Below are positions 38,501 through 41,500 of a stretch of DNA of 64,000 nt, in pieces. The DNA comes from Schmidtea polychroa (taxonomy: Eukaryota): positions 11,472,001 to 11,536,000 of the forward strand of contig CM097885.1 in assembly GCA_044892525.1 (NCBI GenBank), written 5' to 3'. The position numbers and the translations under genes were made by a program. The first letter of the stretch is position 1; each line of letters begins with the position of its first letter. The notes under the pieces were generated by a model that was not told the DNA's origin, did no database searches, and saw only the letters and a list, made by a program, of their open reading frames with translations.

Positions 38501-41500
38501 GACAGATGCGGCATCGATGTTATGGGAAGCGGCGAAAATAGCGAAGATGACCGATGAAATGGCAAAAGAGTGGTTTATAGAAACTTTTACAGTAAGGAAA
38601 ACCATTACTAACAAGATTGTGGAACTAGTTCAAATTCAGCAAGAGAGAGATGAAAGATTCCAAGTCTTCGAAATACGAGTAAGAAGTTTAGTTAAAAGTG
38701 TATTTAGCTCTGGAATGTCTGATGAACAGATTGTTCGAGACATTATCTCAAACAGAGCGAAAGACGATAGAGTAAAAGAAATATTCTTATCAGGGAAAGT
38801 GACAAGTTTTGAAGATGCCAGGGATATGGCAAAAATTCAGGAGAAGATCGAGATGACGAATGACAATAAATTCAATATTGATGCCATAAGAAGAGACTCC
38901 TACGCATCAGTGATGAAAAATGGTAAATTCGAGGGTAGACGAGACCAAAGAACAATTGTGAAGACAACTGCACATCAACGCGACGAACACCGAGAGATTA
39001 ATCATGAGAGGAATAGAGCTGGTAATGGTCGGTTTGTACCAATTGTAAATGAAGACAAGAATGAAAATGAGCGGTATAGAGGACGATAAGTAGTGTGTAT
39101 ATATACCCAACCAACACAACCCTCCCAACTAAAACATACCTCCATTATGCTTAAACCATTAGAAAAACAACATAAAACCTATACTTTTATAGTATTTTAA
39201 CCCCATATTTTAAACAACAACCACCCTTAATCTTTAAAACCTCAAACTCAAAAGCTTCAAACTAAAAAGAGAATAGAAAAGAAAATGGCATTATGAAAAA
39301 GTTAGAGGGCTATTTGATCTTTATCAGATTATTGATTTTAAATTATATAAATTAAAAAATAAATGAAAAATAGTAAAACTGCTCTGAGGGGACAGTGGTA
39401 TTTTTTTTTTTTTTTTTTCACTGTCCCCTCAACAGTTTTTTTTGATCCGGATCATTTTTTTATTTATCAACCTCTTTCGTTTATCGAATCTCTTCCAATA
39501 TACAAGCTGGCCAGACTCATACATCAAAATCAATCCGATAATAGCAGCACACCTTATTATTCGCTTCTCGCTCGAATACGATTTCATCGGCGTTTTAAGT
39601 GTGCTGCTCGAAAGTACGAATGAATTCGAAAGTGAATTCGAAAGAGGTCCGACAACAACTGAGAAATAAATGTGCACATTAAAGAATCGATCCGGGGGTG
39701 TTCGAAAGACAGGTGGCGATAATTACCGGTTCGCCACCATCACCCGTTTCAATAATTTTTTTTTCATATTTATGTTTAAAAAATAAAATAAAATAAAATA
39801 AATAAAATAAAATAAAATAAAATAAAAATAAATAAAATAAAGTATAAATCTAAGATACCCACACTATTATTTTCAAATTTTTAATATTATTTTATGTTGA
39901 AAAAAAACTAACCACAGTTAGGATTTGAACCGCTATCCATTTGAACCACGGTGCCGGTCTAGCCCACTGCGCTATCTAGGTTTGGATTTTTGTTATTTTT
40001 TAGACTATAAATAATCGATTCAAGTTCTTTAACTCCTTCCTGTAATTGTTTCATTTTCTTCAATCTTATATCAGCAACATCTACAGCCTTCATATAAAAA
40101 TGTCGATACTTTTCATTATCTACCATCAACTCTTTGATGTATTCTAATGGTTCTTCTTCTCTTCTTTTCATTCTCTTATGTTTAACTTCATTCAATTCAT
40201 TTCTCATTCTTTCTTTTAACTCATCCATTTTTCTAAATATTTTTTTATTGGATATATTAATTTTTGGTAGTTAAAACGTTTTTGATCTTAAATTTCCAAG
40301 AGTTGCCGTTGACCAATCACCTTAAAAATTTGTACAAGTACTAAATCGAGTATGCTGATCAATATTTCAACTCCCGGTGATAAAATTGAAGCCTATTCCC
40401 ACTCCGCTATAATGGCTTACATAATATATTTAATTAATCCTATTTTGTGTGTGTAAATTTTAATATATAAAAATGAATAATATAAAAATTCAAGAAAAAA
40501 ATAAATTAAATCTTGATTATAATAAAGAATTTACTCATGAAATCAAGAAAAACGATGTACTTAAAATCTCCCCAACTCCAGGATCTACTGCAAACTTAAA
40601 TCGTAGGGGTGATATAGTTTTTCAATCTCTTCAAACATCAAACACTATAGATATTTGTAATGCCAAATTATATTATAAAATCGAATCAGAAATTGAAGCA
40701 AACAAAGATATAACCCTAGAAAATAATTTCTTTCCAAATTTATTCTCCAACATGAGATTAAAACTAGGATCATCAGAAATTGAAACTGTTTTACATCCAG
40801 GAGTATATTCTACAATGTTAAATTTTATTTTGACTGGTTGTGATTATAAAAACGAATATGGTGAATTGACAGGCTGGATTCCTGATGTTAATAAAGGAGA
40901 TTTAGATAAAGATGGTTTAGATATAAATTATGGTTACTATAAAAGAGCTGAACTTTATAAATCTAAAAAATTTGAAGGTTATTTTGAATTAAAACACTTG
41001 TTTGGATTCCTTCAAAACTATAATCGTATACTTCATAATGTTTTTATAGAATTAGTTTGTAATAGAGTAGAAGGTGATAAAAGATTGTTCTATGGAGGTG
41101 TAGATACAAAAGCTAAATTAAAATTATCAACACTTGAATTGCATATACCTGAATGGACATTAAATCCACATTCTGAAATCAAACTCCTTGAAAGATTAAA
41201 TTCCAACAAGTCTATAAATGTAAATTATTTAAATAGAATCTGTAGTGAATTTAGTATGACAGAGGGTTCAACATATTCTATAAAGGTAGCAAATTTAGCA
41301 TACCGACCAAGATATATCTTGATTGGATTCAAAGAAGTAGATTCATCTTTCCAAAAAAATAACAACTTGTTTATTCAAAAGATTGGAGTTGATAAGTTAA
41401 AAACAATCCAAATTCAATTAAATAGTTCTTATTATCCAATAAATAGAATGGAATTTAATATTGAAAATAATGAAAACATATTCCCATATCTAAATTATAT

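Follow-up and report, generated by a model that had tools for sequence, protein, structure and literature searches.

The Polinton and its surroundings

The window, that is, the whole 64-kb stretch of DNA analysed, contains a Polinton/Maverick element of 14.6 kb with long terminal inverted repeats (TIRs), a protein-primed polymerase (pPolB), an rve integrase, a jelly-roll capsid protein and a PLA2-like domain (Table 1). The left end of the element is AGTAGT at 39089. Long TIRs, an AG left end, pPolB, the rve integrase, the capsid protein and the PLA2-like domain are common to this element and the Polinton/Maverick elements of the Alpha adintovirus-like type, as far as the available text of the published account goes (PMC8502044). 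No target-site duplication is visible at the Polinton ends; the right end is eroded in this copy. The Polinton interrupts the gag region of a Gypsy element (38229-39089 / 53647-57197). The polymerase region and the ATPase-like region are each split in two ORFs, by a break or an intron. Protease-like motifs were noticed by eye in 45454-45909, where Pfam and PDB gave no match. Outside the element, exons of a hemicentin-like host gene lie at about 22400-37500 on the minus strand, with Ig, TSP1 and EGF repeats seen by eye; they mark the host as an animal.

Table 1. Positions of the features of the Polinton and of the predicted RNA in the window
Feature	Position	Strand	Remarks
Left TIR	39099-40006		908 nt, 98.1% identical to right TIR
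Right TIR	52776-53676		without the outermost ~11 bases
Double jelly-roll major capsid protein	40473-41759	+	PF21738, E 3.7e-26
PLA2-like domain and rve integrase, one protein	41777-43180	+	PF08398, PF00665 above cut-off
A32-like ATPase candidate, split ORF	43177-44024		Pox_A32 18.4 bits, under cut-off 22.8
Type B (protein-primed) polymerase, two ORFs	48389-52701	-	PF03175, E 1.6e-7 on 48389-49741
Predicted ~370-nt Pol III RNA, left copy	39375-39745	-	reads outward to element end; predicted ends
Predicted ~365-nt Pol III RNA, right copy	53036-53400	+
A box	39726-39736	-	mirror 53045-53055 (+); one departure from consensus
B box	39684-39692	-	mirror 53089-53097 (+); exact match to GWTCRANNC
tRNA-like head	39696-39745	-	5-bp GGGUG/CACCC helix, D-arm-like 8-bp hairpin, 7-nt loop
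Central domain	39447-39695	-	closing 7-bp helix, 39695-39689 with 39453-39447
Self-complementary 12-mer	39669-39680		16-mer in right copy
25-bp hairpin, candidate dsRNA-mimic arm	39481-39541	-	9 G·U pairs; predicted fold
3' hairpin, 21 bp	39375-39439	-	A12-A18 loop, then T-runs; terminator candidate to 39354
Short tRNA-like Pol III unit	39900-39983	-	A box 39974, B box 39930, T8; mirror ~52799-52882 (+)

The contigs of four sequencing runs (X1, X2, X3 and X5), out of 14 listed, were examined, all four having been picked for holding TIR words. X1 and X2 come from one study and from the same organism as the window; their type, RNA, is only guessed and is not on record. X5 looks like DNA, and X3 is a run from another organism. 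The empty insertion site of the Polinton is present among the contigs of X1 and X5. In X5, 25,074 contigs fall over 39083-40700; they show numerous variants across the TIR and, rarely, deletions inside it, which suggests that the Polinton family is diverse and present in many copies. At the start of the capsid gene (40465-40533), many short contigs match in X3; this stretch may be of low complexity or may be a conserved promoter.

Candidate promoter and terminator of the unit

The B-box consensus used for scoring was GWTCRANNC, and a consensus pattern was likewise used for the A box. On the strand reading outward to the element end, each TIR carries an A box and a B box in a long unit, which corresponds to the predicted RNA, and again in a short tRNA-like unit. 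The spacing between the boxes is 44 nt in both. Four A+B box pairs are found in the 64 kb, all in the TIRs (the long and the short unit, twice each). By chance, 0.03 pairs are expected per shuffled window, and 2 of 5000 segment shuffles hold a pair, although the A-box pattern behind these statistics was loosened post hoc, with the sequence already known.

From 39783 to 39378, the outward strand has no run of four or more T residues common to both copies; one private T4 lies inside each copy. Directly after the 3' hairpin, a T4 run is followed by T5 and T6 runs. The scarcity of T-runs alone is weak evidence, since at most one such run occurs in 748 of 5000 shuffles. The internal boxes at tRNA spacing, together with the T-run at the 3' end, suggest that the unit is a type-2 Pol III gene.

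The short unit adjoins the long unit upstream. It has two B-box-like motifs and no stable fold (z about 0). An ORF of 89 amino acids (39959-40228, minus strand) without a Pfam match overlaps the A box of the short unit with its final codons, and a similar ORF seems to be present in L015.

Folding of the TIR segment

The earlier note had described a highly foldable and GC-enriched segment of about 370 nt in each TIR. The GC content is indeed 40%, compared with 26% in the element interior and 26% and 9% in the flanking parts of the TIR. When folding of 39376-39747 was compared with that of dinucleotide shuffles, as the note had proposed, it was far beyond chance on both strands, both as RNA (z of -5.5 for the plus and -9.3 for the minus strand) and as DNA (-6.6 and -7.7, respectively), with none of 100 shuffles as good in each of the four tests. 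The z value of the right copy, folded as plus-strand RNA, was -9.7. After removal of the terminal hairpin, the values were -4.8 (minus) and -3.0 (plus) for RNA and -3.7 (minus) and -4.3 (plus) for DNA. Background tiles (n = 42, 310 nt) gave a mean z of -0.05 and a minimum of -2.2.

The motifs listed in that note are all found where they had been placed. The arms of the hairpin at about 39385-39431 begin at 39385 and 39419, with the extension AAAACTG at 39375, one base to the left of the start given for the segment, and CAGTTTT at 39433. A palindrome is present at 39443, the sequences of the long-range helix (39470/39639), of the nested helix (39543/39599) and of the helix at 39712/39731 are in place, and a 16-nt palindrome is perfect in the right copy only (53099). 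The sequences of the small nested hairpins, TATTCG/CGAATA and CGAT/ATCG, are also present but are weak as structures: for the outward strand, the fold prediction places two small helices in this loop, with mean pair probabilities of 0.24 and 0.33, and the nested hairpins are altered in a variant that carries a 2-nt insertion after 39572. Two differences that break palindromes in the left TIR do exist; however, they need not be read as damage to the left copy, because many copies carry the shorter allele at 39682 (approximately 44% of the depth in X5) and, at 39506, the left-copy base takes part in a pair of the left RNA fold.

Strand and structure of the predicted RNA

Watson-Crick helices are strand-symmetric, and therefore the G·U pairs decide the strand. 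The fold of the outward strand contains 14 G·U pairs in the left copy and 12 in the right copy, compared with 3 and 4 for the inward strand. The structure in the note had been drawn on the wrong strand, and its strongest inner helix, that of the hairpin at 39481-39541, was missing from the list of pairings. Folded as outward RNA, this hairpin has an energy of -23.1 kcal/mol, compared with -2.6 for inward RNA and -3.1/-0.1 for DNA. As it barely folds as DNA, a replication or packaging signal in single-stranded DNA, which had been suggested for the segment, is not favoured. The other suggestion, a structured noncoding RNA, is supported by the strand-specific fold, the A and B boxes, the terminator and the depth in the runs guessed to be RNA.

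In the predicted fold of the outward RNA, the tRNA-like head is followed by the central domain, in which a 15-bp helix opens a four-way junction with arms of 6, 12 and 25 bp. The mean pair probabilities of the five helices of this domain are 1.00, 0.90, 0.96, 0.93 and 0.97. The A7, A8 and A12-A18 runs are unpaired, and the linkers are A-rich. The 7-nt loop of the head resembles, by eye, a UUC anticodon loop; the acceptor and T stems are absent. ARAGORN (default, 90% and 80% thresholds) and Rfam found no tRNA in the head. At the 70% threshold, at which ARAGORN also called the short unit, a "tRNA-Thr" appeared at about 53088-53164 and was regarded as low-threshold noise. The Rfam search that had been proposed for the segment gave no family match, only sub-threshold hairpin and snoRNA noise. 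A likeness to the mir-15/16 seed was dropped (14 bits for Rfam mir-15 versus 57), as were likenesses, seen by eye, to the 7SK GAUC motifs, the hammerhead and the RNase P/MRP and SRP cores.

Sequence variation and conservation of pairs

Eight substitutions within the organism of the window were considered: six in the unit, among the 40 of 93 variants listed, and two sites differing between the TIRs. In the outward RNA, seven of the eight are at paired sites. Among the variants listed, five of these seven keep the pair by exchange between G·U and Watson-Crick pairs and two break it; one of the five kept pairs is in a weak 2-bp helix. In the inward fold, none of the eight keeps a pair (three break one and five are unpaired, likewise among the variants listed). 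Since transitions keep pairs in 56% of cases anyway, this evidence is modest.

Pieces homologous to the unit are found in the other organism (X3) at 39469-39514 and 39609-39652. A loose end over 39515-39526 differs in 4 of 12 letters, and all four changes keep pairs when scored against the partner strand of the window; by hand count, 9 of the 12 sites of this arm tolerate a transition. Behind 39652, the 12-nt palindrome (39669-39680) is still perfect, its two symmetric inner positions having both changed. In the 12-bp arm, before 39609, about half of the letters differ. True two-sided covariation in a long helix was not seen among the available variants and X3 pieces.

Searches of viral contigs for TIR homologs by protein gave none, save one distant locus in one search, and the 12 and 62 loci obtained there by pattern were all chance matches by blastn. 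Genome contigs gave no locus in one search and three short loci in another, and none was found among phages. A metagenome scan gave 11 capsid loci. Neither a strict A+B pair nor similarity to the unit was found in these and four integrase loci (48.4 kb), which may not reach a TIR, and the result therefore has no bearing on absence of the unit.

Contig depth over the unit

The summed contig depth of 39449-39753 relative to the outer TIR was 66-fold in X1, 195-fold in X2 and 1.7-fold in the DNA-like X5. Relative to the element interior, the corresponding values were 39-, 267- and 1.5-fold. The depth of the short unit was raised 4-fold in X1 and 28-fold in X2, with 2.6 in X5. Such depth carries neither strand, ends nor level and is not suited to ranking parts, and the 3' hairpin was skipped as a repeat. 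The head (39693-39753) has no cover in X1, and the depth in X2 peaks over 39449-39570. Because the runs were preselected, the contigs are strandless and the head is bare in X1, the pile-up is a fair hint of transcription and not a proof.

The 12-bp arm has in its loop, at 39572, the variant with the 2-nt insertion and altered letters; this variant is frequent in X1 and X2 but rare in X5. Much of the RNA may therefore come from a small part of the copies. It should also be mentioned that an AAUAAA motif on the outward strand (39464-39459) is fused to the A7 run, and that five X2 contigs have extra T letters before 39455, with a drop in depth beyond. The extra letters might come either from oligo(dT) priming, from tailing or from variation in run length.

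Comparison with known RNAs

Adenovirus VA RNA I and II resemble the unit in several respects. In the available text of the reports, they are virus-encoded, with internal A and B boxes and a U-run terminator, and have a proposed tRNA origin, a long imperfect wobble-rich stem and a GGGU/ACCC pair (PMC6599070, PMC7589676). The wobble-rich stem of 20-30 bp has its counterpart in the predicted 25-bp hairpin with 9 G·U pairs; a GGGU/ACCC pair is also found in the unit, and 4-mers of this kind arise easily by chance. The carriers of VA RNA and the Polinton belong to the same broad protein-primed, jelly-roll lineage. However, VA RNA is approximately 160 nt in these reports, whereas the unit is approximately 370 nt. 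VA RNA is described there as consisting of a terminal stem, a central domain and an apical stem with box B (PMC7589676, PMC6599070), and its tetrastem as stacking on the apical stem. The unit has no terminal stem joining the 5' and 3' ends, its B box lies outside the apical loop, its GGGU/ACCC pair is in the head, away from the long stem, and it sits in the TIRs as two copies. Rfam holds a VA RNA model, and no match to this family was obtained at E up to 5-10. In size, layout and Rfam result, the unit is not a member of the VA RNA family.

The MHV68 TMERs and the Pol III pre- or pri-miRNAs of BLV and foamy viruses also have a tRNA-type head, downstream hairpins and a poly(U) end, and the foamy-virus units are in terminal repeats, as is the present unit, according to the part of the review available (PMC4378190). 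The unit lacks the cloverleaf, and the 5' strand of its T arm is predicted to pair 240 nt downstream. Its body is one multi-branch domain, compared with the two free hairpins of TMER-type RNAs. For lack of a cloverleaf, it is not a TMER. EBV EBER1 and EBER2 are structured viral Pol III RNAs with a U tail, as is predicted for the unit, and share with it a wobble-rich stem (their stem IV), again in the available text (PMC4378190, PMC6599070). They are herpesviral and of approximately 170 nt, and the unit shows no sequence or Rfam match to them.

The tRNA-derived SINEs and BC1 RNA share with the unit a tRNA head with A and B boxes, a length of 150-400 nt and A-rich tracts. Unlike these, the unit has its own terminator and a strongly folded body, and it has neither an A or repeat tail nor a duplication at its ends. 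No dispersed copy is found in the window: copies outside the Polinton number 0 in 64 kb, and the DNA depth is 1.5-1.7 times that of the neighbours.

Possible function of the RNA

We propose that host Pol III would transcribe an RNA of approximately 365-370 nt outward from each TIR, a location that would give two RNA gene copies per element. Judging from the boxes, T-runs, fold and depth taken together, such transcription, with the exact ends given here, is quite probable. The RNA would fold into a head probably derived from a tRNA gene, a four-way junction bearing the wobble-rich arm of 25 bp, and finally the 3' hairpin; La might be bound at the U tail. The RNA might then bind to dsRNA sensors of the host, or to Dicer, and not trigger them, in the style of adenovirus VA RNA. 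This role is proposed because of the analogy to VA-I and because the 25-bp stem, with its nine wobbles, is kept via G·U exchanges. VA-I is a tRNA-type Pol III RNA, in which, according to the available text, the working core is a wobble-enriched 22-bp stem; this stem is stacked to 30 layers, under the threshold for activation, and the wobbles help to escape OAS1 (PMC6599070). If the RNA exists, action as a decoy may hold or fail about equally. The explanation as a whole, an outward Pol III RNA acting as a decoy for dsRNA sensors or Dicer, is tentative and falls slightly below that.

The RNA might instead be a precursor, with the 61-nt wobble hairpin and/or the 3' hairpin cut into small regulatory RNAs. 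A tRNA-like head, hairpins and then a U-run are the layout of TMERs in the available part of PMC4378190. In addition, the 39481-39541 hairpin is of pre-miRNA size with a z of -5.1, and the X2 depth is highest at 39449-39570. However, the head is without the acceptor and T stems that RNase Z processing is expected to need, the hairpins are inside a closed multi-branch domain, and the A-rich loop of the 3' hairpin has 15-21 nt. We regard this processing as unlikely; it overlaps with the decoy role, because VA RNA is also a Dicer substrate. It is rather improbable that the RNA pairs with itself via palindromic loops for particle assembly or genome packaging, or that its A-loops sequester poly(A)-binding protein. 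The right copy has three perfect palindromes of at least 10 nt, as have 1.6% of 2000 shuffles, but the left copy has only two, a number reached by 8.7% of shuffles. The palindrome at 39669-39680 is intact in the other organism despite two symmetric changes, although this is a single compensatory event. The A7, A8 and A12-A18 runs would be accessible in the fold as single strands, but the length of the A-runs differs among copies. We know of no packaging RNA in the Polinton virus lineage. An RNA that acts as a particle cofactor, dimerized via self-complementary loops and working with the packaging ATPase or as a mark of the genome end, for which the phi29 prohead RNA is the comparison, is highly improbable; if true, this would be the first case of a packaging RNA among the lineages of eukaryotic DNA viruses.

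Other explanations place the function outside a Pol III RNA. Only the Pol III boxes might matter, as a TFIIIC-bound insulator or a captured tRNA-type SINE, with the RNA as a by-product. The adjoining short unit does retain boxes without a fold, and the length and tRNA head are SINE-like; yet about 300 nt past the boxes fold at a z of -4.8 or better, with G·U-compatible changes, the window holds the two TIR copies alone, with a DNA depth near the TIR level, and pieces of the unit are conserved in the second organism. This makes the boxes an improbable sole function. A structure of single-stranded DNA that would act in strand displacement as a signal for replication or packaging is very unlikely. 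The DNA folds beat shuffles on both strands, which leaves room for a role at the DNA level, and several zero-loop palindromes and C-GAAA-G loops are found on the inward strand. A proposed model of Polinton replication includes a single-stranded, racket-like intermediate, in the portion of the source available (PMC4196379). However, this model pairs the two TIRs, which would probably compete with internal hairpins, and the unit is 290-660 nt away from the terminus. Besides, the wobble hairpin fails to form as DNA, and the boxes, the terminator and the RNA-type depth are left unexplained. Equally low is the probability that the structure belongs to a Pol II transcript reading outward, as its 3' end or 3' UTR; the 89-aa ORF (40228-39959) could be the source of such a transcript. 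The AAUAAA at 39464-39459 is the only one on the outward strand, and the added T in the five X2 contigs, with the drop in depth past 39455, would agree with a 3' end there. On the other hand, the signal is explained as well by oligo(dT) priming at the A7 run inside the unit, and the length of the T-run also varies among DNA copies. The depth of the ORF is 100-fold lower, X1 is bare between 39693 and 39875, and no gene reading outward lies upstream in the right TIR.

Implications

Listings of the literature searched, which was mostly open, showed no report of a structured Pol III RNA encoded by a Polinton. In the available text of the Polinton/adintovirus account, a figure on other MELD viruses is the only place where predicted tRNA genes appear, and, unlike here, a long structured RNA in the TIRs is not mentioned (PMC8502044). 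The accessible part of PMC4378190 describes the Pol III RNAs of viruses as small in number. The segment is a real feature, and most likely it encodes a structured Pol III RNA that is new and is carried by the Polinton.

Polintons have so far been treated as protein-coding virus-like elements. If it exists, the long, structured and apparently abundant Pol III RNA in the TIRs would constitute a new RNA family, and it would be a sign of how endogenous Polintons handle host RNA defences. It would also provide a comparison of invertebrate type on a question that is still open, the origin of VA RNA from tRNA genes.
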